Source: Candidatus Cloacimonadales bacterium
Lineage (GTDB): Bacteria > Cloacimonadota > Cloacimonadia > Cloacimonadales > JAFGVF01
Length of the DNA stretch: 64,000 nt
Assembly (NCBI GenBank): GCA_963663475.2
Contig: CAXXJV010000001.1
Location: 388,279 to 452,278, forward strand
Direction of reading: 5' to 3'
Positions 4,352-60,677 of this stretch are shown one piece after another. The translations under genes were made by a program, and so were the position numbers. The stretch's first letter is position 1, and the number at the start of each line of letters is the position of its first letter. The notes under the pieces are model-generated. The model did not search any database. It was not told where the DNA came from and was given only the letters and a program-made list of their open reading frames with translations.

Positions 4352-4400
4352 CCCGAATGGTGCAGTAGAACTTTGATAAAGAGTGATAGATTCTCTCTTT
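4352..4400 (+). mobile_element. Truncated MITE-like element (left arm only)
   Basis: CCCGAATGGTGCAGTAGAACTTTGATAAAGAGTGATAGATTCTC matches the left arm of the 26042 copy. There is no matching right end. It is fused to a GC-rich hairpin. Confidence 0.6.
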
Positions 4401-6743: not shown

Positions 6744-6952
6744 TCATTTTTTCTTTAACCCGAATGGTTTAATTATATATTTTCTAATTATTTTTCTATA
6801 AATACCATATTCTCAAAGAACTAGATTGAGTCAAGAACATTATATGATGATTATTAAGTATCTAGGATAGTTAATTTTTAGCAAGTTTCCTGAAGACTAA
6901 TGTAGATTATAGCTTGAGAGAAGTGGGTGTTTAGTTTAAGCATGCTTAGTTC

Positions 6953-7007
6953 TTCCTTTACGGTCTTTCGATGAAAGTCCAGGTTTCATCGAAAGACTGT
7001 AAAGGAA
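6953..7007. repeat. Hairpin-family repeat, copy 1
   Basis: TTCCTTTACGGTCTTTCGATGAAA-GTCCAGG-TTTCATCGAAAGACTGTAAAGGAA. Related copies are at 25534 and 55185. Confidence 0.8.
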
Positions 7008-7055
7008 GGGTAAAAGATGAATAAGGGGTAGATAAGAGAAAATTATTCTTTTTAT

Positions 7056-7246
7056 CCCGAATAGTTGAGTAGAACTTTAGTAATACTTGACCAAAGCTTC
7101 GTATCACAGGTGAAGAGTGCTAGATTCTTTTAGCAAAATAGCTTACAGAATTCGCGCGCATATAACATATATATTCGGAAGGCTATGGATCTTACTTTTG
7201 CAAAAGAATATTCTGTTATTCTCAAAGGTCTAATGCATTATTTGGG
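7056..7246 (+). mobile_element. MITE-like palindromic element (191 bp, longest form)
   Basis: Ends are CCCGAATAGTTGAGTAGA ... TCTAATGCATTATTTGGG. It is flanked by the direct repeat TTTAT (7051-7055 and 7247-7251). Confidence 0.85.
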
Positions 7247-7430
7247 TTTATTGGCACTTAATTCTCAATAATGCACTAGACCTAGTGAAGAAGTTTAAAA
7301 AAAATTAAAGAAAATTCTTTACAGTTTTGAAATATTTTAAGTTAATGATAAAATAGAAAAATTAGAGATTCAAAACATTCTAAAATTAGGCTCTTTGAGG
7401 TGCTAACGAATTAATTATTAAAGGAGACAT

Positions 7431-11633: not shown

Positions 11634-11984
11634 ATGGAAAAATTATATTATACTATTACAGAAGTTAGTAAACTTTTAGATATTAAACCTTATGTCATAA
11701 GATATTGGGAAACAGAGTTTCCTCAAATACGCAGGAGTAGGAAAAGTGGGCGTAACAGACGCTATAATCAAAAGGAATATGAGACTATATGTATTATTAA
11801 AGACCTGCTTTATGACAAAAAATATACAATTAAGGGAGCAAAACAAGCTCTCAAAGATAATGTAAATCCTCCAGTAAATGAGGCTGCTCCCAAAGAAATA
11901 ACAAGTCCACAACAAGAATTAAAAAACATAAAAGATTTACTAGGAAAGATTAAAAAAATAGTAGAAGAATTTAAACACGAATAG
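11634..11984 (+). CDS. MerR-family transcriptional regulator
   Basis: 116 aa with the N-terminal HTH YTITEVSKLLDIKPYVIRYWETEF. The last codons and the TAG stop lie inside the MITE copy at 11976. Confidence 0.8.
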   Translation: MEKLYYTITEVSKLLDIKPYVIRYWETEFPQIRRSRKSGRNRRYNQKEYETICIIKDLLYDKKYTIKGAKQALKDNVNPPVNEAAPKEITSPQQELKNIKDLLGKIKKIVEEFKHE

Positions 11985-12070
11985 TACATTTGAACTTTTG
12001 GTGAAGAGAGCTAGATTCTTTTAGCAAAATAAGATTCTGCTATTCTCAAAGATTTATTGCATTATTTTGG
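11976..12070 (+). mobile_element. MITE-like element, short form (95 bp)
   Basis: CACGAATAGTACATTTGAAC...TTATTGCATTATTTTGG, flanked by TTAAA (11971-11975 and 12071-12075). It overlaps the 3' end of the MerR CDS. Confidence 0.75.
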
Positions 12071-12075
12071 TTAAA

Positions 12076-12236
12076 CCCAGATAGTGTAGTAGAGCTTTAG
12101 TGAAGAGTGCAGATTATTCTAGCAAAATAGCTTACAGAATTTTGACGCATATATTTTATATATTCGGAGAAATTATGGATCTTACTTTTGCAGAAGAATA
12201 TAGTGCTGTTCACAAAGGTCTACTGCATTATTTGGG
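12076..12236 (+). mobile_element. MITE-like element (161 bp)
   Basis: CCCAGATAGTGTAGTAGA...TCTACTGCATTATTTGGG, flanked by TTAAA on both sides. It is 159/161 identical to the 25196-25356 copy. Confidence 0.9.
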
Positions 12237-12262
12237 TTAAATAGTATAGTAAGCTAAACTTA

Positions 12263-13997: not shown

Positions 13998-14057
13998 TTA
14001 CTTGTTGATTATATTCTTTGCATAAAAACTAATATCTATTAACTTTTATTATATAAT

Positions 14058-14121
14058 CTCATTGATGCAGTAGAGCTAAAGAATATTCTGCTATTCTCAA
14101 AGATCTACTAACTTATTTGGG
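14058..14121 (+). mobile_element. MITE-like element, mini form (64 bp)
   Basis: CTCATTGATGCAGTAGAG...GATCTACTAACTTATTTGGG, flanked by ATAAT (14053-14057 and 14122-14126). Confidence 0.7.
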
Positions 14122-14142
14122 ATAATAAATAATGGAGTTTTA

Positions 14143-24081: not shown

Positions 24082-25101
24082 ATGCTAAAACAAAATAAAA
24101 GAGTAATAGAAAAAAATCTATCTCTTAAGAAGATTAATAACCTAATCTTAGGAAACACATCACGTCTTATTTCTAATTTTACTCATAAGAGCCATATTTG
24201 GGGTTATCCGACCGCTGTAATGATTGAACCGACCAATATATGCAATTTGAAATGCCCTCTTTGTCCATCTGGAAATGGGACTCTTAAGCGAGCTAAAGGA
24301 TATATGAAATTATCACTCTTTAAAAAAGTGATAGATGAAATTAAAGATTACTCAACTATGGTTATTCTGTGGAATCAAGGAGAACCTTACCTCAATCCAG
24401 AGATTAACCAAATGATTAAGTATGCAACTGATGCGGGACTATTCACCTTAATTTCTACAAACCTTAATGCTGATATGGATGCTGAAGCAGTAGTTAAATC
24501 AGGTATCGACAGTATGATTGTTTCTCTTGATGGAGCCACTCAGGAAACTTATAATCAATATAGGGTTAATGGAGAATTGGATAAAGTGCTAGCTAATGTA
24601 AAAGCCCTTGTGCAAGCAAAAAAGAAACTTAATTCTCCAAGTCCAATAATTAGATGGCAATTCCTTGTCATGAAACATAATGAGCATGAAATTGAACAAA
24701 TAAAGCAGATGGCTAAAGAACTTGAAGTTGATCAACTCAGCTTTAAAACAATCCAAATCTATACTAAGGAAGATATTAAATTCTTACCTGATAATCCTAA
24801 GTATAGACGCTACAATATCTCAGGAAATGATTTTGAAATTAAGTTTAAAATGGAAAATAAGTGCCGAAGAATGTGGCAACAACCAGTTGTAAATTGGAAT
24901 GGTGATGTTGCTATTTGCTGCTTTGATAAAGATATTGATTTCCCTGTAGGCAATGTAAGAGACCAATCATTACTATCAATCTGGCATGGGAAAGATTTTC
25001 AAAAGATGAGAAATGCAATTCTTACAAATAGGAAAGCCTTTGAAATCTGTAGAAATTGTGGAGAAGGTGTAAAGTTAAGAATTCAAGAAAAGAATAACTA
25101 A
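24082..25101 (+). CDS. Radical SAM / SPASM-domain protein
   Basis: 339 aa. CNLKCPLC (CxxxCxxC) cluster and a C-terminal Cys-rich SPASM-like region (CRRMW..VAICCFD..CRNCGEG). It starts 10 nt after the C25 stop. Confidence 0.85.
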   Translation: MLKQNKRVIEKNLSLKKINNLILGNTSRLISNFTHKSHIWGYPTAVMIEPTNICNLKCPLCPSGNGTLKRAKGYMKLSLFKKVIDEIKDYSTMVILWNQGEPYLNPEINQMIKYATDAGLFTLISTNLNADMDAEAVVKSGIDSMIVSLDGATQETYNQYRVNGELDKVLANVKALVQAKKKLNSPSPIIRWQFLVMKHNEHEIEQIKQMAKELEVDQLSFKTIQIYTKEDIKFLPDNPKYRRYNISGNDFEIKFKMENKCRRMWQQPVVNWNGDVAICCFDKDIDFPVGNVRDQSLLSIWHGKDFQKMRNAILTNRKAFEICRNCGEGVKLRIQEKNN

Positions 25102-25105
25102 CTAA

Positions 25106-25191
25106 TCCCAGCTAGTGTAGTAGAACTTTAGTAATACTTGGCTAAAGCTACGTATCACAGGTGAAGAGTGCAGATTATTCTTCTGCAAAAT
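25106..25191 (+). mobile_element. Truncated MITE-like element (left half of the long form)
   Basis: It matches 7056-7140, including the 30-nt segment TAATACTTG.CTAAAGCT.CGTATCACAGGT. It ends abruptly at the TTAAA preceding the next copy. Confidence 0.7.
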
Positions 25192-25195
25192 TAAA

Positions 25196-25356
25196 CCCAG
25201 ATAGTGTAGTAGAGCTTTAGTGAAGAGTGCAGATTATTCTAGCAAAATAGCTTACAGAATTTTGACGCATATATTTTATATATTCGGAGAAATTATGGAA
25301 GTTACTTTTGCAGAAGAATATAGTGCTGTTCACAAAGGTCTACTGCATTATTTGGG
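25196..25356 (+). mobile_element. MITE-like element (161 bp)
   Basis: Two differences from 12076-12236 (GGATCTTAC vs GGAAGTTAC). Flanked by TTAAA (25191-25195 and 25357-25361). Confidence 0.9.
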
Positions 25357-25374
25357 TTAAAACTCCTATAAGGG

Positions 25375-25520
25375 GTGCAGGCTACTGGCAAAGTCAAATT
25401 CTCTGAGCCCTGGAAGGACGACATTATTATTGCATTCTCAGATGTTAACAGAATCACCGTTCGAAGTCCCTTACCTAGCATTGAGAATGGTCAACTTTTG
25501 TTTAGCAATTGGCCTTTCCT
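25375..25520 (-). repeat. GC-rich module, inverted relative to the 13912 and 55020 copies
   Basis: The reverse complement of 25455-25490 reads ATTCTCAATGCTAGGTAAGGGACTTCGAACGGTG, matching the shared core. Confidence 0.55.
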
Positions 25521-25533
25521 TGCTTATTCCTTT

Positions 25534-25582
25534 CTTTACACTCTTTCGATGAAAGTCCAGATTTCATCGAAAGAGTGTAAAG
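25534..25582. repeat. Hairpin-family repeat, copy 2
   Basis: CTTTACACTCTTTCGATGAAA-GTCCAGA-TTTCATCGAAAGAGTGTAAAG. A compensatory C-G pair replaces the G-C pair of the other copies. Confidence 0.8.
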
Positions 25583-25622
25583 GAAGGATTAGGGATGCAA
25601 TAGTCTATTTTTATAAATTTAT

Positions 25623-25680
25623 CCCGAATAGTGCAGGAGAGCTTTAGAGAAGATTTCAATAATTTTCTGCAAAAGTAAGC
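25623..25680 (+). mobile_element. Partial MITE-like element (left arm)
   Basis: CCCGAATAGTGCAGGAGAGCTTTAGAGAAG..., preceded by TTTAT. No right end is present. Confidence 0.55.
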
Positions 25681-26041
25681 TAGGTAAATTGGCTCAAGTT
25701 CAAGTCTGGTGGCAATAATATAGGAAAATGAGAATATTCATTACTATATTGATTCATCAAAAATCCCTGAAAGGGATAAAAAATAATTTAGCCCAGGGTA
25801 AGATGCTGACTTATGAAGGCGTAGCTTTAGCGAAGATTCAAAGTATCGCAACCCTGGATAATGATGGCAACCCAAAGATATTACTCTGTAAGGGTTTAAT
25901 AAAAGGATAAATAATGTAAAAAAAAAGCCAACATCTTACATAGGTTTATTTTCCTAAACAAGTGTTGGCTATATATTTATTAAATCTTAAATTTATAGAT
26001 TGAGCTAGTAAATACTAAGCAAATCTAAAAATTTCAATTAA

Positions 26042-26203
26042 CCCGAATGGTGCAGTAGAACTTTGATGAAGAGTGCTAGATTCTTTTAGCAAAATAAGTT
26101 ACAGAATTTGAAGGCATATAATATATATATTCCTGAAAATTATGTAGCTTACTTTTGCAAAAGAAGATAGTGCTATTCGCAAAGGTCTACTGCATTATTT
26201 GGG
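26042..26203 (+). mobile_element. MITE-like element (162 bp)
   Basis: CCCGAATGGTGCAGTAGA...TCTACTGCATTATTTGGG, flanked by ATTAA (26037-26041 and 26204-26208). It abuts the ackA stop codon. Confidence 0.9.
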
Positions 26204-26204
26204 A

Positions 26205-27431
26205 TTAATCTTCTTTTTCTAAATCTAAACGACTTTTAATGATTTTTTCTGTTTCTATAGCAATCATTAACTCTTCATTAGTTTGAACTTTTAAAACTTT
26301 CACCTTACTATCTTCTGCTGAAATATCTAAAGTTCCACCAACCCACTGATTGTTGTTCTTTTTATCAATCTTAACACCTAGATAATCCATATCTTCACAA
26401 ACTAACTCACGTAAGATTGGCATATTTTCACCAACACCACCTGTAAAGACTATTACATCTACACCATTCATTGCTGCAGCATAAGCTCCAATATATTTTT
26501 TGATTCTGTAAGCATAAACATCATGAGCTCTAATTGCTCTATGATCATGGTCTTTAAGAATTCCATCTTCAATAGTTCTCATATCATTAGATAATTGAGA
26601 CAAGCCTAACATACCAGATTTTTTATTGAGAAGATTATTAACTTCTGCAGAAGACATATCTAAATTTTCTTGTAAAAATAATGGAATAGCAGGATCTAAA
26701 TCTCCACAACGTGTTCCCATTACAAGTCCTTCAAGAGGAGTTAATCCCATTGAAGTATCTACAGAATCTCCATTCATAACTGCAGTAATAGAAGCACCAT
26801 TTCCAACATGACAAGTAATTATTTTTAAATCTGTAACAGCTTTACCTAAAAATTCAGCAGCTTTTAAAGAAACATACTTATGAGAAGTCCCATGGAATCC
26901 ATATCTTCTTATTTTATGTTCAACATAAAGTTCGTAAGGAATTGCATATAAATAAGCTTTTTCAGGCATTGTTTGGTGGAAAGCAGTATCAAAAACACCA
27001 CATTGAGGTGTTCCTGGAAGATATTTATAAACAGCTTCAATACCTTTGATATTGGCAGGGTTATGTAAAGGAGCTAAATGAGTGCATTCTTTTAAAGCAT
27101 GAACAACAGCATCATCAATATAAACTGATCCTGAGAAATATTCACCAGCATGAACAACCCTATGTCCTACAGCATCAATTTCTGCTGGAGAACTTATACA
27201 ACCTTTGTTTTTATCTAATAAAAGATCTATGATATCTTTTAATCCTTGTTCATGATTAGCTATAACCATTTCTTTCTTTTTGAAAGTATGTCTTTCACTT
27301 TTATAAGTAAAAAGAGAAGTTTCATCGCCAATATTTTCAACAATACCTTCAGCTAAAAGTTGCTCATTTTCTTTGTTAATCAATTGATATTTGATTGATG
27401 AGCTACCACAATTTAATACTAATATCTTCAT
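26205..27431 (-). CDS. ackA: Acetate kinase
   Basis: MKILVLNCGSSSIKYQL start and full-length AckA motifs. The track start at 27449 is a TTG codon. ATG 27431 has an AGGAGA SD upstream. Confidence 0.95.
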   Translation of the reverse strand: MKILVLNCGSSSIKYQLINKENEQLLAEGIVENIGDETSLFTYKSERHTFKKKEMVIANHEQGLKDIIDLLLDKNKGCISSPAEIDAVGHRVVHAGEYFSGSVYIDDAVVHALKECTHLAPLHNPANIKGIEAVYKYLPGTPQCGVFDTAFHQTMPEKAYLYAIPYELYVEHKIRRYGFHGTSHKYVSLKAAEFLGKAVTDLKIITCHVGNGASITAVMNGDSVDTSMGLTPLEGLVMGTRCGDLDPAIPLFLQENLDMSSAEVNNLLNKKSGMLGLSQLSNDMRTIEDGILKDHDHRAIRAHDVYAYRIKKYIGAYAAAMNGVDVIVFTGGVGENMPILRELVCEDMDYLGVKIDKKNNNQWVGGTLDISAEDSKVKVLKVQTNEELMIAIETEKIIKSRLDLEKED

Positions 27432-27514
27432 TATGTCTCCTATTCTCAATATAATTTATAATTATGGGTTCAGGATTTAAAATATTGGGATAGTGTCAAA
27501 TAAAATTTGCTGAT

Positions 27515-27571: not shown

Positions 27572-29041
27572 TTACTCGAATCTCTGACTAATATTTATTG
27601 TATAAGTTCCAATATCAACTAAAGCTCGACCTTCAATAATTTTTTGTAGATTTGCAATAAAAGTCTTATCATTAATTGAACCTTGTCCTCTTATGATAGC
27701 CTTGATTATCTTATCATCTTTAAAAATTAGACGAAAATCTAACTTACCTCTGATAGTTTTACGTAGTTTATAGCTATTGAATTCTTGATTAATTCTAGGA
27801 AGAATAGCACTAGTAAACCACTCTCGAATCTGAGTCTCTTTTTCATTATCTGTAAGATCTCTTCTTTCGCGTTTAGTTCTTTCTATTTGCCTTTTCTCTA
27901 GTTCTGTATCATCAATTTCTGTAGATTCAATAGTTTCTACTTTTTCAAATCCATCACCTAGATTACTATTTAAAGTTCCAATATCAGCTGTTTCTCCAGA
28001 ACCAATTCTGGCAGTTCTTCTACCTCGAACATCACTAGCTCTAACACCTCTAGCAGACACAACTGCAGTATTTATTTGACTATCAGCTTGTCTTCCTAAG
28101 GCTTCAGCAATTCCACCGTAATCTGAATCTGTATCAACATCGATATCAAAGGATGAGCTAGCCCTTGATGTACCTCTAAGTCCTCTAACTCTACTTCTAA
28201 CCGCTAAGGCTGTACCTGTACCAGCTTGATCACCTCCACCTTCACCAACATTTTGATATCTTTCCTGTGAGTTAGCTTGAGCTGATCGTCTTCTCTGAGC
28301 AATTCTATCTTGAATTCTTTGAGCATCTGCTGCTCTTTGCTCAGCTTCTTCCTGAGCCTTGGCTTCAGCTTCTCCATCTCCCTCTTCTATAATTTCAGGT
28401 TCTTCATAAAATTCAGTAGTTTCCTGACTAATTTCAATTGGAGACTCAACTTGCATACTAACCATAATATTCTCTTCAGTTCTATCAAAGATTGTTTTTG
28501 CTCGGGAAGGAGTATAGGTCCATCCCACAATTGAAGCAAAAATTATTATGGCTAAAATTACAGAGATAACAGTAAAGCGAGTTACTTTTTGCTGAGTAGA
28601 TATAGCTGGCCAACGATTAAGGAGACTAACCAATTTCTTTTGTTCAGCAGTTAGCGGAGCAGGCTTTGGTATGGCTCTGAAGGAAATAGTAGTATTTTCA
28701 TCAATTACTACTTCTCCTTCATAATCTTCATTAAGATATAAACGATTATCTTTGAGCAGGCCTAGACTTTTAATTTCATCAAGAGATAAGTCTTTATCTC
28801 CCTTCTTAACACTAATAGAAAATGATTTTAATAAATTAAAATAGTATTTCCCATTCTCATTTATTATTAAATCATGTTTCTTAGGGAATGAGGGATTGTA
28901 TATCTGCCATAATAGACTTGGGTCCGAACCAATAGTCAGCTTTTTACCAATTAAAAAGTGTTTATTAGTTGTACCTTCAGAAAATGCGACAGAGAATTGC
29001 TTTCCCTTATACAGATATTTTATTAGGAATCTTTTATTCAT
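27572..29041 (-). CDS. TonB-like membrane protein (N-terminal cytoplasmic domain, single TM, charged linker, TonB-C-like end)
   Basis: 489 aa. It is the last gene after ExbB-ExbD-ExbD, with a 1-nt stop/start overlap with the upstream ExbD. TM segment FTVISVILAIIIFASIVGW, acidic/Arg-rich linker and a small C-terminal alpha/beta domain. The assignment is by context and architecture. Confidence 0.45.
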   Translation of the reverse strand: MNKRFLIKYLYKGKQFSVAFSEGTTNKHFLIGKKLTIGSDPSLLWQIYNPSFPKKHDLIINENGKYYFNLLKSFSISVKKGDKDLSLDEIKSLGLLKDNRLYLNEDYEGEVVIDENTTISFRAIPKPAPLTAEQKKLVSLLNRWPAISTQQKVTRFTVISVILAIIIFASIVGWTYTPSRAKTIFDRTEENIMVSMQVESPIEISQETTEFYEEPEIIEEGDGEAEAKAQEEAEQRAADAQRIQDRIAQRRRSAQANSQERYQNVGEGGGDQAGTGTALAVRSRVRGLRGTSRASSSFDIDVDTDSDYGGIAEALGRQADSQINTAVVSARGVRASDVRGRRTARIGSGETADIGTLNSNLGDGFEKVETIESTEIDDTELEKRQIERTKRERRDLTDNEKETQIREWFTSAILPRINQEFNSYKLRKTIRGKLDFRLIFKDDKIIKAIIRGQGSINDKTFIANLQKIIEGRALVDIGTYTINISQRFE

Positions 29042-29637
29042 TATAAACCTCCTAAGCCGTAAGCTGATAGAAGTCTATAATAATCATCAGTTTCTCTTTT
29101 AACAAAATCTGTAGCAAAATAGAGTTTAAACTCTTTAGATTTTGATAGAGTTGTAACTGATGAGTTCTCATCATTCCAAATATCTATAAGCATTGATTTA
29201 ATTGTGTTGATATATTTAAAAGGAGTGTTTCGGTGAGCTTTAACTCTCACTACAACAGGCTTATTGCCAATATTATCTCCAAGTATAGAATGAATAGTAA
29301 CATCTAAAGCGCGAGTTTTAGCTGTCATCACTTCACTTGTAGTATTATTAATGTCTTCAAGCTTTGCTATAGCAATTTGCTCAGTTGAATTTTCACTCTT
29401 ATAAGTTATTACACCTGAATCTCTTCCAGTATAACTTACATTAAGAGATATGATTTTACTATTATCTGCAATCTGTTCTTCAAAGAGTGCTTCTTCAAGT
29501 TCTACACCTTCAGGGACCAAATCAGGGTCGGATGAAACATTGACCATAACAAATAATAACAAAATTGTTAAAATATCAATTAAAGAAGTAATACTCATCT
29601 GCGTAGTTTTTTTTGTTCTGTGTGCTACTGGGCTCAT
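29041..29637 (-). CDS. exbD: ExbD/TolR-family protein (paralog 2)
   Basis: 198 aa with the N-terminal signature ITSLIDILTILLLFVMV and a periplasmic domain. Confidence 0.75.
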   Translation of the reverse strand: MSPVAHRTKKTTQMSITSLIDILTILLLFVMVNVSSDPDLVPEGVELEEALFEEQIADNSKIISLNVSYTGRDSGVITYKSENSTEQIAIAKLEDINNTTSEVMTAKTRALDVTIHSILGDNIGNKPVVVRVKAHRNTPFKYINTIKSMLIDIWNDENSSVTTLSKSKEFKLYFATDFVKRETDDYYRLLSAYGLGGL

Positions 29638-29648
29638 AGTTTACTTCC

Positions 29649-30224
29649 TTATTCGACTTCACCGATCATAATATCGGAAAATTTCATCTTTTTACATAAG
29701 TCCATTGTTTTTACAAAAACACCAAACTTAACATAGTCTTTCGGTATTATAATAATAGGTAAGGACCTATTATCACCTTCAGAGATATTAGAATCACCAT
29801 ATTTATCTTCAAGCATAATTGTACGGTAAGATTTCAAAGCCTCAGATAACTTACTAAAATCAGAAGAAAGAATTTGAGCATACTTTACATCAATTGTATC
29901 ATTTTTACTGAAGGAGAATATTTCTCCCTCTTCATCAACATTGATAGTAAGTTCTAATTTTTTAATTCTTGCCTGATCTTTATCCTTTTTTTTATCTTCA
30001 GATGAAGCAGCTCCACCTGATGCGTTTGGATTAGTCAAATCCAAAGAAATATAAGCAATTGAGACTAAGACCACCATACTCAAGAGCATTGGAATCAGAG
30101 TCACGAATAAGTTCATAATCGGGACTAAATCCACTTCTTGGTGACCAGTGCTTCTATTGGCGTTTCTTCCCTGTGAAGGACTATAGATTTTATTTTTCTT
30201 TCCAACAGCAGGATTAATTCTCAT
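29649..30224 (-). CDS. exbD: ExbD/TolR-family protein (paralog 1)
   Basis: 191 aa with VDLVPIMNLFVTLIPMLL TM signature and a periplasmic domain. Confidence 0.75.
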   Translation of the reverse strand: MRINPAVGKKNKIYSPSQGRNANRSTGHQEVDLVPIMNLFVTLIPMLLSMVVLVSIAYISLDLTNPNASGGAASSEDKKKDKDQARIKKLELTINVDEEGEIFSFSKNDTIDVKYAQILSSDFSKLSEALKSYRTIMLEDKYGDSNISEGDNRSLPIIIIPKDYVKFGVFVKTMDLCKKMKFSDIMIGEVE

Positions 30225-30228
30225 GATA

Positions 30229-31050
30229 TTAGTCCTGTACTTGGTTATTGATCACATTCATTATTTTTACACTGTTAGCATCTAATTCATTAATAATCTT
30301 CTCAGCTCTAGTAGATAAGAAACCTTTAATAAATTGTATAGCGATAGCACCAATAAGTCCTAAAGCTGTAGTACCCATCGCTTGTTTAATACCACCCATA
30401 AGAACTTCAGTTTCTGAGATACCAGAGAAAGCCTGGATAAGACCCATGATAGTACCGAGAAGTCCTAGATAAGTTGATGATTGAGCAAGAAGGTCAAACC
30501 AGTGAAGACCTCTATCGATTTCAGGAATTGTTTGGTAAGCAGCTTCGTTAAAAGCATTTTGAACTTCTTCCTTTAAGCTGTCACCAGTTTTGCCTGAATT
30601 TTTAGCATCTTTATATGCTAATAAACCGATACGATAAATCTGTCCCATTGTAGTTCTTTGAACAAGTTCAGCAGCAGCGATAGCTTCTTTAAGACTACCA
30701 GACTTGACTAAACCTTTAATTTTTAAATGGAATTTGTTACTATCAATTTTCTCTTTAACCATTAACTGGTAAAAGCGAATAAGTGCATAGAATACTGAAA
30801 TTAAAAAGATACCTAGAATAACCCAGGCAAAAACTCCAGATTCTGCAAAAACTCTGATTAAATTTGTTGGCCCAAGTTTTGCAATCCAATCTTCTGAATC
30901 TTCTTCAACTTCGGCTGGAACAGATTCTTCGTTAGCATTTTCTTGAGTTACTTGATTTTCATTGACGGCTACATCTCCGTTATCTTGGGCGAATAAAAAC
31001 CCAAAACAAACAACTAAAAGTAACATAACTAATAATGCAATCTTTCTCAT
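30229..31050 (-). CDS. exbB: MotA/TolQ/ExbB proton-channel protein with an acidic N-terminal extension
   Basis: 273 aa. Signal peptide, acidic stretch of about 40 aa, then the ExbB core (STYLGLLGTIMGLIQAF, TTALGLIGAIAIQF). Confidence 0.85.
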   Translation of the reverse strand: MRKIALLVMLLLVVCFGFLFAQDNGDVAVNENQVTQENANEESVPAEVEEDSEDWIAKLGPTNLIRVFAESGVFAWVILGIFLISVFYALIRFYQLMVKEKIDSNKFHLKIKGLVKSGSLKEAIAAAELVQRTTMGQIYRIGLLAYKDAKNSGKTGDSLKEEVQNAFNEAAYQTIPEIDRGLHWFDLLAQSSTYLGLLGTIMGLIQAFSGISETEVLMGGIKQAMGTTALGLIGAIAIQFIKGFLSTRAEKIINELDANSVKIMNVINNQVQD

Positions 31051-31078
31051 ACGATCTCCTATTTGGTTTTTATATAAT

Positions 31079-31354
31079 TTAGTATAAAACTCTATTAGAT
31101 TTTAATAATTTTTCCATTATGTAGGTTTTAAAGATGAATTCTTCATCTGTTGACATTCTTGAACGAGTAATATCTATGTCAGGTAATCCAGAAGCAAATC
31201 TAGTAACTTGCTTAATTTCGATAGAATCATAGATAGTTTCAACATTACCCTCAACCTCTATATAAACTGCATCATCATCTTGATTAGTCTGTGCATTACA
31301 AAGGTTAAAAGCAGAAACCAGAATAATTACTAATATCAATATTACCTTTTTCAT
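31079..31354 (-). CDS. Small secreted hypothetical protein
   Basis: 91 aa with a signal peptide. It lies 2 nt downstream of the giant TPR gene (stop at 31357) and 28 nt upstream of exbB. Confidence 0.5.
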   Translation of the reverse strand: MKKVILILVIILVSAFNLCNAQTNQDDDAVYIEVEGNVETIYDSIEIKQVTRFASGLPDIDITRSRMSTDEEFIFKTYIMEKLLKSNRVLY

Positions 31355-31356
31355 AA

Positions 31357-34300
31357 TTATCTCCTTTCATTTAGGGTTCGGATTTGTAGATCTATTAACA
31401 ATCCGTTATCTTGCTTAGGGCTATTGACCTCAAAAATAATCACATTTTTACCTTGGACATAGTAGTCTGGACTAATGTCTAGATATGGGGCATCAGGTGG
31501 AGCAAAGTAGTAATATTCTTCGAATCCAACCTGTTGACCGTTTAGATAGATATTAACAGTTTCATTAGCTAAGAAATATATAATACTATCAATAACTTGT
31601 CCAGTGACCTCAAATTCTTTAACAAAGTATTTTACAGTTGGCTGATCTTCTATTACTTCTTCCTCAAGCATAGTTGAATCAGCTAGAGAAGCCACGTTAA
31701 GGGAATCAAGTCCTGTATTTGCCAACATAAGAGAATCTTCTAGTACTTGTGCAGATAAAGTATCTTGGATATTAAGGTCTGTTAGTAGATTATTTGTATC
31801 AACTTGCTTTGTTTCTTCTTGAAGGAGGTCTGTGTTTCTGTACCAAATTGGTATAGCCACAGAATTCTTGAATGCATCTAATTGGTAATAGTCCTCATCA
31901 ATAGTGCCATAACTAACTTGACCCCAGTTAGGATCATCAATTGTTAAAGTTTCTAATGAATCAGCCCCTAACCAAGTATTATCAGTGACAAGATTAAACT
32001 TAACAGCATTGTTGTGAATAAAGAGTTTTTCCTTATCATAAATCATAGCAAAGTTAAAACCGATATTGATATCATCAAATGACTTATTTACTACTTGCAA
32101 TGAGATGGTATTTTGTCCCTTAGAGTAGTTCAAAGATGCAAGATTATTATCATTACTTAAACCACGATAAAGATATGGGAAAGCTGATAGAGAATCTTCA
32201 ATTATCCCATCTGGTAAATATAAATTACTAATATCAACTAAATTATCATTAGCTTTGAAGCTGATAGAAACTTGATCATTGAACCAAAAATCTCCTTCCT
32301 CGACAAATCTGATTCTAGATGCCATAGGTAAGATAGGACATTCGAAGCTAGTTTCAATATGCAAAGAATCACCAGAAGGAATTGTGTAAATCATGAAATC
32401 TCTATATCCATCATTTATCTCACTTTCTTGGATGGCAGAAAAATCTTTACGCATTGAAGCTAAGAAGGGAATTTCTATCTCCTCTTTAGCTACTACTTCT
32501 GAAACACCAACCTTTTGTAAGAAAGCTACAATTTCATCTGTCCCAGGTAGAGGATTTGTTATTCCATCGATATATGTTTCATAAATTGATTTTGCATACC
32601 CAATACCGATATTATCAAATTCAGTAGCATACTGGCCTCTAACTAGATAGATTTCATCTTCATAAGCATAAAGAATCTCATCTTGTTCCTCATAGGTTAA
32701 ATCAGTTCTGCCATAGATGATATTTTGATAATTGACATATTGTCCATTTGGTAAGGTAAGGAATTTAGTAATTTGATTATAAATTAAATCACCACTATAT
32801 TTAGCAATTTTAAATTTAGCATAATCCAACTTATAAATTTCTTCTCTCTTTTCATCAACAGTTAATAAATCACTATCAAAAACTCTTTGGGCATCTTGGT
32901 CTATCAGAGCAAATTGATTTTTCACTAATTCAACAAAGTTATTAATTCTCTTATTTTCACCATATAGGTGAGTATTCCATGTAGTAGCATTGTTAACCTT
33001 AATTCTTTCATTAACTTCTGCAGGAACATCTATAAATTCCATAAATTTGTTGTATCTAATTTCAAGATCAGCTAAGAATGCTTTCTTTTCTTGTTCTCTT
33101 TCATAATCAAGAGTGTATTTATCATAGCGTTCAAGTGATGAAGGTATAGCAATTGTCTCAGCAGGAATACCATTTGCAGTAAAGGTTTCTGCTTGAGCTT
33201 TAAAGTCTTCGATTAGAGATAGCATTCTATCCCATTCTTTATTGCGATAGGCCTTTTTAATCTCCTCATCAATAGGAGATAATTGTTCAACTGCATATCT
33301 AGGATATCTTACTGATGTATTATCCGTTGCGTAAAGTATCTTAATGTATTCAAGATAGTTTTCATCATCTTCTAGTTCTTCATAAAGACTACAAATAAGG
33401 TTGAGGATGTAAATTCTCTCATAGTCAGGGAACTTCAAGTTAAAAGCAACCCATTCTTGGACTTCATCTTCTTTAGATAAAGTTCTACATTTCATCTCAA
33501 TAGCATTGAAATAATAATCTTCAGCCTTTAAGTCTAGAGAAGAAATATCTAATTTATCTCCTTCTTGGCTAGCTCTTTCATAGATTTCCAGCATCTTTTC
33601 AGAAGCTAATAAAGGATCATATGTAGTAAGAGTTGAATCTTGGACAACACCTAATCTGCTTATTAAAATAACAAATGTCTGCTGGTCATTAGGGAATCTT
33701 CCCATAAATGTATCTTCAATTTCTTGTGTTCTTTCTTTATAACCAAGAGAATCTGTTATCGAGATAGCAGCACTATAGTTGTTCCATGCTTCTTCAATTG
33801 TTTTACTTGCATCACCTTGTTCAAGTAAACGACTAACAGCAGTATCGTAATCACCACCAGCAGCATAGAGAGCTATTGCATTTCTACGTAATTCAGCTTT
33901 CTTAGCTTCATCAATAACTGAAGACTGAAGAACTTTTTCCATTTCTTGAGCAGCTTTTACCTTATCTTCCTGGTTATCTGTGCTTTGAAGCTGGCTAATT
34001 TTGGCTGATCTATTATTAAAGATTTCTTTTTCATACTCTGTTTTTTTCTCATCATCAACAAACTCTTTAGCCTTAGCGAAATACTCAATGGAAGAATCAA
34101 TATCACCGTCAGCTTTATATAATTCAGCAAGATTACGGAAGATACTTTCTTTATATTCATCTGAGATATTTAAGTCATTACAAGCTAAGAAGTCTGCTTT
34201 AGCTCCATCATTATCCCCCATTCTCCTCTTAGTTAAACCTCTATAATATAAAAGTTTATAAATAGTTTGGTCTTTATCGGGTATATCTGATGTGGATAGG

Positions 34301-37300
34301 AAATCATAGAATCTATTTGCAATACTTATGTACTGGCTCCTTCTTTCACTTTTAATATCTTCAATTTCTTGAGTACTATAGTTTAAGGTATCAAAATTAG
34401 TAGTATCTGTTATTACAGAAACATTATAAGCCCAACTGTAAGCATTTTGCTCTAAATCAGTCCTAATGTCAGTTTCAGGATTTCTATCAATGAAGTTATA
34501 AACCTTTTCTATACCATAATTATAAGCAGTAGTATCCTGTTGAGATCTCACATATTTCACAATAGCACTAATATTATTTTGATCATATATTTTAAGACGT
34601 TGAGCCCTAATTTCTTCATCAAATCCAACATAATTGGCATATTCCTCTGTTGCATTAGTGAAGGACATTATATTTTCCATGTTAGGATTTGCATCTACTT
34701 TACTATATAAGTCTGGTAAGATGAAATCATCAAAACCTTTTTGAATAACCTTAACATATGGACTTAAATCTTGATTCTTATTGTACTCATACCAATCACT
34801 AGTATAGCCATATCTTGCAATAGCTTTTCGATATTCTCTTTCACCTCTGATATCTAAAGAGTCTCCTAGTTCAAGAGAATAACGACTCATAGTTGTAATG
34901 ATTGAATCTGTATAGACAGGGTTTGTAATAGCATATAAATCTACTCTAGACCTAGCGTCATAAAGAGTAATAATATCCTCAAATTCATCAAAGATTCTTT
35001 TCTTCTCTAATAGTTTTTGAAAAATATTATTAGCAGTGGATTCATCATAGAGGGTGAAGAGCTTATTCATAACATAATCTTTTGACTTCAGTTCAACATT
35101 TGGCAAGTAGTCAACTTCATTTAATGAATAAACGATTATGTCTTCAGCAGCACTATACTTATTCTTTTGATATTCAGTAAACATATCCTTATCTGCAAGC
35201 AAGATTTCTAAATCTGCAATAGCTGCTTCATAGTTTTGAATAGCCATTTTGTGCCATGCTCTTTGGAATAAAGCTTCATACTTTTGATCAAGACTACCAA
35301 GTGCATATATTTGGTCATAAACTTTGATAGAAATACCGACATACTTTGCTGGGTCATCAGCATCAACAGCAATATCAAAATATAATTTAGCAAGACGTAA
35401 CATTGATTCAATTTGATACTTACTGTTAACATCCTTACTAAGTTCTAAGTAGTTATCAATTACTTCTCTATATTTACTTACTGATTTTGTGACAGATTCT
35501 GGTCGAGGTTGGTAGAAATAGTTTTCATCTTTCATTTTTTCTTCACGAAGATTAGCTATTTCTAAATCTAAAATTTGATTTTTATAATAAGCCAAATTGT
35601 AGAGGACCACATCTTTCTGTGGGAAATCAGGGTTTAATTCAAGAACCTTTTGATAGTTATTATAGATTAAATTATAGTTGTTACTATATATAATAGTAGC
35701 AATTTCAGCTAAATTAAAGTATAGTTTAAAATTATTATTGAAGTTATTATTCTTGAAGATAAAAGCATTTGTTCTATTATATATGCTTTCATACTGGTCT
35801 TCATATTGGCCATATTCAGCCTCAGAAAGAGCTAAAGAATCACGATCTGCTTCTTCTAAACGACTTTTATAATTCTCGTTTAATTTGCGGAAATCTAAAT
35901 CTAAAGCTATGAAATCAACATAAGTTTGTTGTTCATTTTTTATTTGATTAAATTTATTAAAAGAGTTAGAGTAAATTGATATTTTACCATCTAACTCTTT
36001 AAATTTATCCTTAACTTCTGCTTCAGCTTTAGCTGCAACAGTCTCATAATATGTATCTATAACTTTTCTTCTTTTAACTTCTAACTTACTTTCTTGAGCT
36101 AAAAATTCTTCTACTTTCTCTTCAGCTAATTCTTGTTTTTCAGATAAGTTTGGGAACTCAGCTAAATCAAACTTAGCCTTAACTCTTATCTCATCTAAAT
36201 TCTCTTGTTCATCCTTAAGAAGCTGGCGTAGTTCGCTATTTTTTTGAGGATAAGATCTTGTTTTATCTACTAAATTAGAAAGATTAACAATATATTTCTT
36301 CTTGAGATAGAGTTGATTAGCATACCAATAGGCTCTCAAGAATTGATCATCATTAGGACTTTCGATATCACTAAGAAGTTCTTCAGTAATATCAAGTAGG
36401 TAATCTTCCTCTTTATTTGCCCTGTCTCGATTTGCGATAGCGATTAATTCGTCTTTAGGTCTATTTCTATATTGATCAATAAGATCAAGTTCAACAAAAT
36501 AGGTTTCAGTTCTTTCAATGAAGGTTAGTTCGAGTTCTTTGATAAGCTGAACAGATCTAGGATCTAAGAAAGAAATCTTTTCTTCTAAAACTAATTGGTT
36601 TGCAAGAACTGCTTCTTCCTTACTAGTTATTTGCTCTCTTAAAATATTTTTTCTAGTTTCTTCAGTTTCCATTAAGAGGTTATTTCTTAAAGATCTAATT
36701 TCATTCATGAGATTTCTATTCTGAAGTAAACTAGTAAAATAATCATCTACTCTTGCTTGGTAACTAGTCATTAAGTTTGAAGCACTATCTCCATTATTAA
36801 GTTCATGGTCAATCAGTATTAAGTTGTAAAGAGTCTGAACATAGAAATCATTAGCATTTTTTGATTCAAGTAATCTTTCAAAAGTGGTTTTTGCCTTTTG
36901 GAGATTACCCGCTTTTCTGTGAGCAATACCTATTTCATAGATAACTTCACTTATGTTATCATTGTTCAATTGGCTATATGCTTGATAATAAGAAACAGCT
37001 GTTTCGGGATCTCCGTAATGAGAAAACAATCTTGCAATAGAGAGTAGAACAAAGTCATAGTAAGGTGTATCTGGCGAAAAGTTGTTTTGTAAAACATCAA
37101 AAATAGCTGTAGCTTCCTCAATTCTTCCTTCAGAAAGAGAAATGAGAGCTAAAGTCGCAGTTGATCTGAGCGTATATTCAGTATCAATAGCAGCTTCTTC
37201 CAGATATTTTTGAGCATCATTAAATCTACCGATGTTGTAGAGAGATTGTCCATATCTGAACTTTTGTGATGCTAATTCAAATTCAGGATACTCTTCAACT

Positions 37301-37800
37301 AATTCCACATATTCTTGATCTTTTCCTGATTTAAATAGAGCTAATTTCCAGTAACGAATGGTTACGTTTTTACGGTTACTGTCTGGATATCTTCTTACTA
37401 AATCATTTGCTTTGAGAGTTACCATATCCCAATCTTGAGAATAAACAGCTTTTTTGCAATCGAGAAATAGCAAATCGTCTTGTAGGCTTGCTACATTACG
37501 ATAGGCCTTAAACATCATACTTCTGATGAAATTAGAATATTCTCGATCATTCTCTTTTATAAGAGTGAAGTAGGCTTCTTCATCTTCGGCAAATTTATCT
37601 TCTATTCCAGATATATTATTAGCTCTAAGCAAGTCATTTACTTGAGTAATTCTCTCTTCTTCAATAGCATTACGAATCTCGTCTAAACTGGCAACATCTC
37701 CCCCATTATCTGCAGGAGAAGTTTGAGAGTAAAGAGTTAGTAATGATAAGTTTATAAGAAGAAGGATCAACAACATCTTCTTTATACACATACTACCCAC
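31357..37800 (-). CDS. Giant (2147 aa) TPR-repeat protein with a non-TPR C-terminal region
   Basis: An uninterrupted ORF with a signal-like N-terminus. TPR-like helical repeats run through most of the length, and the last roughly 400 aa look beta-rich. The track start is GTG; ATG alternatives are at 37791 and 37776. Confidence 0.8.
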   Translation of the reverse strand: MGSMCIKKMLLILLLINLSLLTLYSQTSPADNGGDVASLDEIRNAIEEERITQVNDLLRANNISGIEDKFAEDEEAYFTLIKENDREYSNFIRSMMFKAYRNVASLQDDLLFLDCKKAVYSQDWDMVTLKANDLVRRYPDSNRKNVTIRYWKLALFKSGKDQEYVELVEEYPEFELASQKFRYGQSLYNIGRFNDAQKYLEEAAIDTEYTLRSTATLALISLSEGRIEEATAIFDVLQNNFSPDTPYYDFVLLSIARLFSHYGDPETAVSYYQAYSQLNNDNISEVIYEIGIAHRKAGNLQKAKTTFERLLESKNANDFYVQTLYNLILIDHELNNGDSASNLMTSYQARVDDYFTSLLQNRNLMNEIRSLRNNLLMETEETRKNILREQITSKEEAVLANQLVLEEKISFLDPRSVQLIKELELTFIERTETYFVELDLIDQYRNRPKDELIAIANRDRANKEEDYLLDITEELLSDIESPNDDQFLRAYWYANQLYLKKKYIVNLSNLVDKTRSYPQKNSELRQLLKDEQENLDEIRVKAKFDLAEFPNLSEKQELAEEKVEEFLAQESKLEVKRRKVIDTYYETVAAKAEAEVKDKFKELDGKISIYSNSFNKFNQIKNEQQTYVDFIALDLDFRKLNENYKSRLEEADRDSLALSEAEYGQYEDQYESIYNRTNAFIFKNNNFNNNFKLYFNLAEIATIIYSNNYNLIYNNYQKVLELNPDFPQKDVVLYNLAYYKNQILDLEIANLREEKMKDENYFYQPRPESVTKSVSKYREVIDNYLELSKDVNSKYQIESMLRLAKLYFDIAVDADDPAKYVGISIKVYDQIYALGSLDQKYEALFQRAWHKMAIQNYEAAIADLEILLADKDMFTEYQKNKYSAAEDIIVYSLNEVDYLPNVELKSKDYVMNKLFTLYDESTANNIFQKLLEKKRIFDEFEDIITLYDARSRVDLYAITNPVYTDSIITTMSRYSLELGDSLDIRGEREYRKAIARYGYTSDWYEYNKNQDLSPYVKVIQKGFDDFILPDLYSKVDANPNMENIMSFTNATEEYANYVGFDEEIRAQRLKIYDQNNISAIVKYVRSQQDTTAYNYGIEKVYNFIDRNPETDIRTDLEQNAYSWAYNVSVITDTTNFDTLNYSTQEIEDIKSERRSQYISIANRFYDFLSTSDIPDKDQTIYKLLYYRGLTKRRMGDNDGAKADFLACNDLNISDEYKESIFRNLAELYKADGDIDSSIEYFAKAKEFVDDEKKTEYEKEIFNNRSAKISQLQSTDNQEDKVKAAQEMEKVLQSSVIDEAKKAELRRNAIALYAAGGDYDTAVSRLLEQGDASKTIEEAWNNYSAAISITDSLGYKERTQEIEDTFMGRFPNDQQTFVILISRLGVVQDSTLTTYDPLLASEKMLEIYERASQEGDKLDISSLDLKAEDYYFNAIEMKCRTLSKEDEVQEWVAFNLKFPDYERIYILNLICSLYEELEDDENYLEYIKILYATDNTSVRYPRYAVEQLSPIDEEIKKAYRNKEWDRMLSLIEDFKAQAETFTANGIPAETIAIPSSLERYDKYTLDYEREQEKKAFLADLEIRYNKFMEFIDVPAEVNERIKVNNATTWNTHLYGENKRINNFVELVKNQFALIDQDAQRVFDSDLLTVDEKREEIYKLDYAKFKIAKYSGDLIYNQITKFLTLPNGQYVNYQNIIYGRTDLTYEEQDEILYAYEDEIYLVRGQYATEFDNIGIGYAKSIYETYIDGITNPLPGTDEIVAFLQKVGVSEVVAKEEIEIPFLASMRKDFSAIQESEINDGYRDFMIYTIPSGDSLHIETSFECPILPMASRIRFVEEGDFWFNDQVSISFKANDNLVDISNLYLPDGIIEDSLSAFPYLYRGLSNDNNLASLNYSKGQNTISLQVVNKSFDDINIGFNFAMIYDKEKLFIHNNAVKFNLVTDNTWLGADSLETLTIDDPNWGQVSYGTIDEDYYQLDAFKNSVAIPIWYRNTDLLQEETKQVDTNNLLTDLNIQDTLSAQVLEDSLMLANTGLDSLNVASLADSTMLEEEVIEDQPTVKYFVKEFEVTGQVIDSIIYFLANETVNIYLNGQQVGFEEYYYFAPPDAPYLDISPDYYVQGKNVIIFEVNSPKQDNGLLIDLQIRTLNERR

Positions 37801-37825
37801 TTATCAAATTATTAAGTTAATTAAT

Positions 37826-38827: not shown

Positions 38828-38957
38828 CACAATTTCTCCTTTATGTACACTTAATCGTTAATAATCAAGTTTTTTTGAATTTTCTTTTTTTAGTCATTTT
38901 CACTCATCTCTAATTAAATGAATTGACAAAATAGAGTCAAGCTTTTTTTTTCATTTT

Positions 38958-39350
38958 ATGAATAAATCTAACAAGAACAAAATATTTGGTAAATTAGGTG
39001 AAAGTTTAGCAAGTAGTTATTTAGCAAAAAATGGCTTTGTAATAGTAGAGAAGAACTTTCGTTGTTTTTCTGGCGAGATAGATATTATTGCACAAAAAGA
39101 AGATTTATTAATAATTGTTGAGGTCAAATCTAGAAAAAATATTGATAGTGATGAGACCATGCTATCTATTACAAAGTCTAAGCAAAGAAAAATAAGCCGA
39201 GCTACTGCTGATTTCATAGATAAGAACCAGCAGTATTCGGACAATTTTATCAGGTTTGATATAATAACAGTTATCAAGCATCCTTACTTGGATGAGTATT
39301 CAATCAATCATTATGAAGATGCTTTCTCTTATATTGCAGATGAAAGGTAA
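38958..39350 (+). CDS. yraN: YraN-family (UPF0102) endonuclease-like protein
   Basis: 130 aa with YLAKNGFVIVEKNFRCFSGEIDIIAQKEDLLIIVEVKSR, the family core. Confidence 0.85.
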   Translation: MNKSNKNKIFGKLGESLASSYLAKNGFVIVEKNFRCFSGEIDIIAQKEDLLIIVEVKSRKNIDSDETMLSITKSKQRKISRATADFIDKNQQYSDNFIRFDIITVIKHPYLDEYSINHYEDAFSYIADER

Positions 39351-39447
39351 GCAGGAATCCATAATTATTCTTGGTAAAAACACAGAATTATGAATGATTT
39401 ATTTTTTCCTATCTTAAAAAATCTTCATCCAGCAGTGTGTAATTCTT

Positions 39448-52872: not shown

Positions 52873-53125
52873 TATTGCTCCCAAATATTTTGTTTTTTAT
52901 TTTTTTGGAATATCTGGAATTCTGTCAATTATTTTCGCTAAAAACTTATGCAAAAATGTGAAAACACCTTACAGGCAAGTCTGAAAAGAAGACTCTTATT
53001 TCTTTACGGTCTATTGGGATTATATTAGGCCTTCATTAGCTTTTCATTAGCTTTAGCCCCAATAAGTCACATGATAGAGACCTTATACAAGGCCATTATA
53101 CATTAGATTGTCAAAGGTCTATTAT

Positions 53126-53213
53126 CCCGAATAGTGCAGTAGAGCTTTAGAGAAGAGTGCCTATTCTTTCAGCAAAATAGTGGTATTCTCAAAGATCTAC
53201 TCCATTATTTGGG
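53126..53213 (+). mobile_element. MITE-like element, short form (88 bp)
   Basis: CCCGAATAGTGCAGTAGAGC...GATCTACTCCATTATTTGGG, flanked by ATTAT (53121-53125 and 53214-53218). Confidence 0.85.
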
Positions 53214-53223
53214 ATTATTAACT

Positions 53224-55170: not shown

Positions 55171-55258
55171 TTACCATCCTTAATCCTTCCTTTACAGTCT
55201 TTCGATGAAAGTCCCAGTTTCATCGAAAGACTGTAAAGGAAGGGTAATGGATGGTAAG
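55170..55258. repeat. Hairpin-family repeat, copy 3 (extended)
   Basis: Perfect 26-bp stem 55185-55210 / 55218-55243 with the loop GTCCCAG. It is extended by CTTACCATCC (55170-55179) pairing with GGATGGTAAG (55249-55258). Confidence 0.85.
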
Positions 55259-55270
55259 GGTATTGATAAG

Positions 55271-55328
55271 CCCAAATAATGCAGTAGAAGGTTGAGCTAT
55301 TGCATAAATTCTACTGCACTATTTAGCC
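55271..55328 (-). mobile_element. MITE-like element, mini form, opposite orientation
   Basis: CCCAAATAATGCAGTAGA...TCTACTGCACTATTTAGCC. The termini are the reverse complements of the family ends. One end is degenerate and no clear TSD is visible. Confidence 0.6.
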
Positions 55329-60488: not shown

Positions 60489-60531
60489 CTATTAGGCTAA
60501 AATGCAGAATGTAAGCCCTAAAATGCTTTAA

Positions 60532-60636
60532 TCCGAATGGTGGAAAAGAGCTTTAGAGAAGAGTGGAGATTCTTTTTAGCAAAATAGCTTGCAAAAGAAT
60601 ATGGTGCTATTCTCAAAGATCTATTGCATTATTGGG
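60532..60636 (+). mobile_element. MITE-like element (105 bp, diverged)
   Basis: TCCGAATGGTGGAAAAGAGC...GATCTATTGCATTATTGGG, flanked by TTTAA (60527-60531 and 60637-60641). Confidence 0.75.
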
Positions 60637-60677
60637 TTTAAGGATTCAAGAGGAGAAAAAAACTAAGCTAAGAAGTT

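Follow-up and report, generated by a model that had tools for sequence, protein, structure and literature searches.

Among bacteria, miniature inverted-repeat transposable elements (MITEs) are known from cyanobacteria (Nezha and others), from Neisseria (Correia elements), and from Streptococcus pneumoniae (RUP); the target duplicated by the latter two is TA. Insertion sequences (ISs) of the IS1380 family are approximately 1.55–2 kb long and have a single open reading frame (ORF), inverted repeats (IRs) beginning with CC, and a direct repeat of 4–5 bp. Elements of the piggyBac type have CCC...GGG ends and a 4-bp TTAA duplication. Here, we analyzed a stretch of 64,000 nt from a Candidatus Cloacimonadales bacterium (contig CAXXJV010000001.1, positions 388,279 to 452,278; hereinafter referred to as the window), which contains a family of short palindromic repeats. 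These repeats are, with high confidence, a MITE family, and an IS1380-type transposase is its likely driver.

Among described members of the IS1380 family, IS1247 is 1672 bp long with 16/13-bp IRs and a 5-bp direct repeat (PMC3281130, Table 2), and the transposases of ISEcp1 and ISPme1 can use any sequence resembling an IR, imperfect ends included (PMC9330008). Further, piggyBac has been paired with IS1380-like prokaryotic transposases (PMC5718144), and IS1380 has been treated as an outgroup to piggyBac (PMC10140906, PMC10813416). In the full-text literature, neither MITEs in Cloacimonadota nor IS1380-derived MITEs were found, and no description of a named IS1380 member combining a TTWAA target with CCC...GGG ends was found in the literature, ISfinder being outside the search.

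The window elements were similar to classical MITEs in their short, non-coding, high-copy form, their terminal inverted repeats (TIRs) and fixed target-site duplication (TSD), their hairpin, intergenic location and size variants, and also in breaking short-read assemblies. They differed from them in sequence, in a 5-bp TTWAA TSD, in the partner family, and in the host phylum. The partner ISs described below resembled IS1247, ISEcp1, and ISPme1 in an ORF of the PF13701/NF033539 type, a length of 1.6–1.8 kb, IRs starting with CC, and 5-bp repeats, whereas the window elements were 57–191 bp long, non-coding, and had the IRs alone in common with this family. Within the IS1380 family, the Cloacimonadota clade was characterized by 45–66% internal protein identity, a tight TTWAA target, and CCC...GGG ends.

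The window was bacterial, with a G+C content of approximately 32% and a housekeeping gene content including obg, dprA, recJ, lnt, lpxK, priA, ackA, dnaE, recG, and tRNA-Val. Its housekeeping genes showed 70–80% nucleotide identity to those of the Cloacimonadota loci used for comparison, which indicates, on this measure, that the window comes from a Cloacimonadota species distinct from the compared genomes.

A sequence-only reading of the window had described a palindromic, MITE-like family of at least 12 copies, and both parts of this description held. The left terminal 18-mer (CCCGAATAGTGCAGTAGA) had 14 matches in the window with up to three mismatches, vs. 0.04 expected, and the right terminal 18-mer (TCTACTGCATTATTTGGG) had 16 vs. 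0.07 expected; the expectations were obtained from dinucleotide-preserving shuffles. The complementary ends formed TIRs of approximately 18 bp (CCCRAATRRTGCAGTAGA ... TCTACTGCATTATTTGGG). A profile hidden Markov model built on the three 161/162-bp window copies gave 11 significant matches (4352, 7056, 11978, 12076, 14075, 25107, 25196, 25623, 26042, 53126, and 60533). With the element at 55271–55327, which was borderline by profile (E = 0.02), the window total was approximately 12, corresponding to about one copy per 5 kb. When the complete plus-oriented loci were printed with 12-nt flanks, all of them lay exactly where the earlier reading had placed them. The truncated copies that it had reported at 4352, 25106, and 25623 were also recovered, although the near-palindromic structure of the element leaves the strand of the one at 25623 ambiguous; the degenerate traces reported near 48563 and 50940 were not significant (E = 6 and E = 0.15, respectively). 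All window copies were intergenic. The copies, with their duplications included in the coordinates, were as follows.

4352..4394, plus strand: left-end MITE fragment, with the 2-hydroxyacid dehydrogenase and dprA genes converging on it.
7051..7251, plus strand: 191-bp copy (7056-7246) with TTTAT TSDs at 7051-7055 and 7247-7251; profile score 117.5, E = 3e-34.
11971..12075, plus strand: 95-bp short copy (11976-12070) with TTAAA on both sides.
12071..12241, plus strand: 161-bp copy (12076-12236) in the TTAAA bordering the older 95-bp copy; profile score 181.
14053..14126, plus strand: 64-bp internally deleted copy (14058-14121) bracketed by ATAAT and lying 22 nt upstream of a HAD-hydrolase ORF.
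25106..25190, plus strand: left part of a 191-type copy, cut off at the TTAAA of the next copy; 88% identical to 7054-7120.
25191..25361, plus strand: 161-bp copy (25196-25356) with TTAAA on both sides; profile score 180.
25623..25690, plus strand (ambiguous): terminal MITE fragment preceded by TTTAT, with no second end.
26037..26208, plus strand: 162-bp copy (26042-26203) with ATTAA on both sides; profile score 164.
53121..53218, plus strand: 88-bp internally deleted copy (53126-53213) bracketed by ATTAT and lying 10 nt downstream of a Mut7-C ORF.
55271..55327, no strand assigned: 57-bp degenerate element with two facing termini and no target-site duplication; E = 0.02.
60527..60641, plus strand: 105-bp copy (60532-60636) with TTTAA on both sides.

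The copy at 7056-7246, which separates obg from the divergently oriented recJ, corresponded to the 161-bp type with an additional internal block of 30 nt. The copies at 12076 and 25196 were 99% identical to each other, and therefore both insertions are recent; the tandem arrangements arose because each of the two landed at a TTAAA next to an older copy. No copy was found over the approximately 14 kb of a minus-strand block (27572-41935) encoding a 2147-aa tetratricopeptide repeat (TPR) protein, ExbB/ExbD-type proteins, and two GWxTD-domain proteins.

Across genomes, the copies were 57–316 bp long, most commonly 161 bp, and none of the MITE copies contained an ORF of at least 80 aa. As the earlier reading had also noted, the element folded as one long imperfect hairpin, both for the 161-nt copy as RNA (−64 kcal/mol, z = −9.6) and for the 162-nt copy as DNA (−42.8 kcal/mol, z = −11). 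Shorter variants mostly kept both ends and had lost the central sequence, in agreement with the proposed origin of the size variants by internal deletion. That explanation did not extend to the 161-bp MITE itself, which is not a deletion derivative of any IS found: none of the six ISs described below matched its interior in their sub-terminal sequence.

The occurrence of the family beyond the window was surveyed by a terminus scan with CCCRAATRRTGCAGTAGA using one genome per GTDB species, which returned at least 109 loci. Among the matches listed, these loci were mainly from metagenome-assembled genomes (MAGs) of Candidatus Cloacimonadota, and they included three complete Cloacimonadales chromosomes (OY782499.1, OY829950.1, and OY782831.1). 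A profile that took the interior into account found 117 matches in 78 Cloacimonadota-labelled loci from five genomes besides the window, so that the family was present in at least six species-level genomes, window included. It had no match in the 22 loci labelled as other phyla; 20 of these were rejected as chance matches to the 18-mer, and the same applied to six exact 18-mer matches in viral contigs, none of which was a true copy by profile search. Likewise, no MITE was detected by profile search in 80 unrelated metagenome loci. Metagenome contigs searched with the acetate kinase gave a best match of 66% identity and a MITE in no locus, and exact-protein look-ups with three window ORFs adjoining MITEs returned no identical record. 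In the MAG JAEKNW01, 49 of the 81 family matches touched a contig end, a pattern characteristic of high-copy repeats that break assemblies.

The remaining two of the 22 loci contained a 1595-bp IS (L087, PXAI01000308.1, labelled Balneolia) and a 272-bp MITE-like element with the same termini (L063, JAUWNO010000453.1, labelled Armatimonadota), both on contigs of 2–3 kb. Since short repeat-rich contigs are easily mis-binned, these labels may reflect binning error rather than horizontal transfer. An element of the same length was also found in another locus (L010, 1319-1590; L063, 521-792). Both had the same termini and TTAAA-type flanks and were undetected by the 161-bp profile, and from their sequence they look like a second MITE family on the same transposase ends.

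All eight complete plus-oriented window copies were flanked by the identical 5-mers that the sequence-only reading had given for them: TTTAT for 7056, TTAAA for 11976, 12076, and 25196, ATAAT for 14058, ATTAA for 26042, ATTAT for 53126, and TTTAA for 60532. The same pattern was found on copies elsewhere. In a survey of 60 complete copies with enough flank, drawn from the window and the loci and covering six genomes, 42 had perfect 5-bp TSDs, 12 had one mismatch, and five had two. When the right 5-mer was shifted by 1–8 nt as a control, only 0–2 of the 60 matched perfectly. None of the other duplication lengths fitted; a 4-bp model accounted for three of the 60 copies. The insertions thus carried a duplication of fixed length that differed in sequence between loci.

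The 42 perfect 5-mers comprised TTAAA (17), TTTAA (12), ATTAT (4), TTTAT (3), ATAAA (2), ATAAT (2), TTAAT (1), and ATTAA (1). By position, the targets contained T (48) or A (12), T (55), A (31) or T (27), A (59), and A (48) or T (11), giving the palindromic consensus TTWAA with nearly invariant positions 2 and 4. No sequence preference was visible outside the 5-bp target.

Empty sites carrying a single 5-mer, which the earlier reading had proposed to look for, were identified in three cases, with a probable fourth among the strain contigs described below. In OY782499.1, two paralogous stretches were 97% identical over 389 nt, one of them filled (L101, ...AAGAC-ATAAT-[161-bp MITE]-ATAAT-CCTGAAAGG) and the other empty (L097, ...AAGAC-ATAAT-CCTGAAAGG) with a single ATAAT. 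In L043, a 161-bp copy was nested in a longer variant of the same MITE family with ATTAT on both sides, and uninterrupted homologues of the outer element had one ATTAT at the nesting point. For the copy at 7292-7401 of L025 (JAEKNW01), an orthologous empty site was found in OY829950.1 (L092), with flanks 79% identical. The family therefore showed presence/absence polymorphism with a single target at the empty sites. At the orthologues L082 and L070 (70–80% identity), synteny broke beside the MITEs and no clean empty site was found.

Closely related strains were also represented, those of 99% identity in the samples JGI 3300042257, SRR28369932, SRR28093312, and SRR35194510. Two strain contigs encoding identical LysE (L117 and L118) read ...TATTCTCAAAGATCTATTGCATTATTTGGG-TTAAA-TAGTATAG; their 255-nt flank was essentially identical to that of the window, and their 30 nt of MITE sequence had two differences from the 11976-12070 copy and four from the 161-bp copy. 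By this comparison, the two strains probably lack the 161-bp insertion at 12076, where the contigs stop. At the 60532 site, L119 (3375-3625) and L120, with flanks approximately 99% identical to those of the window, bore a version of the element that was longer and in part different, one end being common with the window copy and the other half replaced. This difference suggests recombination or secondary events between copies, and the structurally different versions mean that MITE loci keep rearranging. The FapA protein differed by one residue between the window and the 99%-identical strain.

The sequence-only reading had noted that no transposase was in sight in the window. Consistently, tblastn with the partner transposase gave no match in the window, and Pfam scans of its large ORFs up to 55223 detected neither a transposase domain nor a Y1 transposase domain. 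The ORFs from 55384 on were judged only via their L119 counterparts, whose precomputed Pfam families were non-transposase. It had also proposed a search for a longer element with the same termini and a transposase, and six distinct ISs of this kind, all of the IS1380 family, were found outside the window. They were 1593–1784 bp long and had one ORF of 469–484 aa and the ends CCCAAATAATGCAGTAGA...GGG.

Pairing of outward-facing termini up to 3 kb apart among the loci gave one of them, the element of L087 (1314-2908), 1595 bp long with the same ends as the MITE, which started with CCCAGATAATGCAGTAGAG and finished with TTCTACTGCATTATTTGGG. Its 484-aa ORF matched PF13701 (DDE_Tnp_1_4; E = 1e-26, 93.6 bits) and also PF01609, and scored 191.2 bits against NCBIfam NF033539 'IS1380 family transposase', for which the cut-off is 180. 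In CAYXFD01, another Cloacimonadota MAG, contig ends corresponded exactly to the ends of this IS over 49–53 nt, and a Cloacimonadota genome thus contains multiple copies of this IS. A protein search found 607 relatives. One of them (P0008; 469 aa), 62% identical to the L087 transposase, was encoded by at least six identical genes in OY829950.1; it passed PF13701 and reached 175.8 bits with NF033539, just below the cut-off. Alignment of six loci delimited the corresponding IS as a 1694-bp element (CCCAAATAATGCAGTAAAAAAC...CCTAATGCATTATTTGGG), and five of the six copies had perfect TTAAA or TTTAA duplications. OY829950.1 thus harbored both MITEs and 1694-bp IS copies.

Four further distinct ISs (1618, 1784, 1619, and 1593 bp) had the same 18-bp ends and encoded transposases 62–66% identical to that of L087. 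The 1618-bp IS had a perfect GTAAA duplication, and the other three had TTWAA-type flanks. In profile match, size, single ORF, CCC...GGG ends, and 5-bp duplication, the partner ISs were as expected for the IS1380 family, and the TIRs and TSD length of the MITE were those of these autonomous ISs in related genomes. In the sixth OY829950.1 copy, a group II intron (L114, 593-2500) with reverse-transcriptase ORFs containing RVT_1 and GIIM abutted the left terminus at the position expected for the 5-bp duplication; the right end of this IS was followed by TTAAA and then a MITE.

In the transposase alignment, D152, D229, and E353 were invariant. The AlphaFold model had a mean predicted local distance difference test (pLDDT) value of 65, with the core above 85, and placed D152 at the end of a β-strand, D229 just after another β-strand, and E353 at the start of a helix, with a β-rich insertion between the second D and E. 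A sequence search against PDB gave nothing useful, and the closest solved folds were the Tn5 transposase (E = 5e-8) and the piggyBat transposase (E = 1.6e-4). Tn5 and piggyBat transposases work by cut-and-paste via hairpin intermediates.

On this evidence, a full-length IS elsewhere in the genome would supply the DDE transposase in trans. The enzyme would bind and cleave the MITE ends of approximately 18 bp and synapse them, the element ends would be joined to a TTWAA target cut with a 5-nt stagger, and gap repair would then leave the 5-bp duplication. The MITEs would thus be moved by an IS1380-type transposase, presumably through cut-and-paste chemistry of the Tn5/piggyBac type, and the genome of the window itself presumably carries, or once carried, a full-length IS outside the 64 kb. 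Trans-mobilization is plausible given that IS1380 transposases accept imperfect IR-like ends. The non-autonomous transposon proposed by the earlier reading is supported by the TSDs, the empty sites, and the same-ended ISs alike.

Several points weigh against this explanation. No transposase is present in the window, and co-residence of IS and MITE was seen in one related species only. The interior of the MITE resembled none of the six ISs, with only the terminal 18–25 nt in common; judged from sequence, the IS–MITE link would therefore depend on approximately 18–25 terminal nt together with identical TSD length and target. On short metagenome contigs, the left and right 5-mers of several IS copies were unequal, which may be due to chimeric assembly of a multi-copy element. 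Further, trans-mobilization of the MITE by the IS transposase is a prediction.

The same limited overlap of 18–25 nt, with unrelated interiors, leaves some room for a transposase of another family (e.g., IS4, IS5, or ISL3) as the mover, the likeness to IS1380 ends being convergent or secondary, all the more as the search did not extend to the rest of the window's genome. This was considered very unlikely: the 18-bp ends recur on six distinct ISs of the IS1380 family, most of them with TTWAA duplications, and among the matches listed (at least 109 loci, chosen by terminus) there was none of another family with these ends.

It is equally improbable that the repeats are host-functional hairpins, such as terminators or attenuators, mRNA-stabilizing stem-loops, or small RNA genes, spread or retained by selection. 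Such a role would account for the very stable fold (z about −10), for copies at gene 3′ ends and between convergent genes, and for the nearly uniform orientation in the window, where 10 of the 11 profile matches pointed the same way regardless of the direction of the flanking genes. However, TSDs, empty sites, and nested insertions show transposition, and copies decay via deletion and truncation. Rfam covariance models run over the whole window gave no match to the MITE, tRNA-Val alone reaching the gathering score. A promoter and terminator consensus scan of 25000-26300, which includes three complete or partial copies, found nothing above shuffled expectation inside the copies. In addition, both orientations were present in other genomes (OY782499.1, OY829950.1, and OY782831.1 loci). 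Secondary exaptation of individual copies is possible, and a host role of the long hairpin is unproven. In those genomes, orientation was weakly linked to local GC skew (Mann–Whitney p = 0.04, Fisher p = 0.26), and coupling of insertion orientation to replication direction is possible.

Spread as repetitive extragenic palindromic (REP) sequences or bacterial interspersed mosaic elements (BIMEs) by a REP-associated tyrosine transposase (RAYT; Y1, IS200/IS605-like), or by recombination or segmental duplication, is scarcely credible: the repeats are palindromic and intergenic and have a GTAG-like motif (CAGTAGA), but REPs make no fixed-length duplications, whereas exact 5-bp duplications were found here in 42 of 60 copies and a single 5-mer at empty sites, a DDE-type IS bears the same ends, the scanned window ORFs contained no Y1 transposase, and the flanks of different copies were unrelated. 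The duplications and empty sites refute this reading. CRISPR-like or satellite repeats were also rejected, being incompatible with exact 5-bp duplications and empty sites.

The MITE family and its IS1380-type partner were further compared with the piggyBac superfamily, with which they shared CCC...GGG ends and a TTAA-centred target, TTWAA being TTAA with one extra central base. The partner transposase, approximately 470 aa long, had a significant structural match to piggyBat, although the match to Tn5 was better; no C-terminal cysteine-rich domain of the piggyBac type was seen in it, no search aimed at one having been made. Because the TSD is 5 bp rather than 4 bp, this is not a piggyBac element, and the MITE/IS clade is outside the superfamily. 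A more far-reaching proposal sees in the Cloacimonadota IS1380 clade and its MITEs a prokaryotic system whose ends and target follow piggyBac-like rules; it was regarded as doubtful. If it is true, the TTAA specificity of piggyBac would be ancestral to the IS1380/piggyBac lineage, and a compact transposase of approximately 470 aa with a defined short target would be available together with a natural minimal substrate of 161 bp. In either case, the TTWAA target and CCC...GGG ends link bacterial IS1380 elements to eukaryotic piggyBac.

Insertions of the MITE were found to reshape gene ends. In the MerR-family ORF (11634-11984), the first 9 nt (11976-11984) of the 95-bp copy provided the two final codons and the stop (TAG); the pre-insertion end was presumably ...TTT AAA TAG, with the gene's own stop present. 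The TAA stop of the acetate kinase gene ackA (26205-27449, minus strand) lay within the right ATTAA duplication (26204-26208) of the 26042 copy, so that this insertion duplicated the stop. As TTAAA and TTTAA contain TAA, copies persist intergenically and often exactly at stop codons.

Since MITEs are well understood as a kind, the value of this family is mainly descriptive. A candidate phylum without cultured genetics gains a defined, recently active pair of a MITE and its likely IS1380-type driver. For Cloacimonadota of sediments and anaerobic digesters, knowing the family makes it easier to assemble and bin genomes and to track strains, and the insertions mark recently polymorphic sites between strains.

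In addition to the MITEs, other repeats were observed. A small repeat common to the window (25730-25900) and OY782499.1, where three copies were found (L097, 3835-4000; L101, 2520-2685 and 6900-7075), contained three conserved short hairpins (ATCCCTnAAGGGAT, CCCAGGG...CCCTGGG, and CCCTGTAAGGG). The MITE of L101 was inserted exactly at the edge of this repeat, a candidate for a further mobile element or for a small RNA.

Another repeat family of approximately 106 nt, unrelated to the MITE, had three copies in the window (6941-7046, 25519-25624, and 55175-55280) and none in 200 compared loci. Its core was a hairpin with a perfect 27-bp stem (TTTCGATGAAA-N7-TTTCATCGAAA; −44 kcal/mol, z = −7.7). 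A MITE terminus lay approximately 43–62 nt after each of the three copies, so that either the MITE favours the flank of this repeat or the reverse. Just upstream of the hairpin of the third copy, a perfect 42-nt direct repeat (55056-55097 and 55104-55145, 48 nt from start to start) was found within an unannotated ORF of 115 aa (54876-55223).

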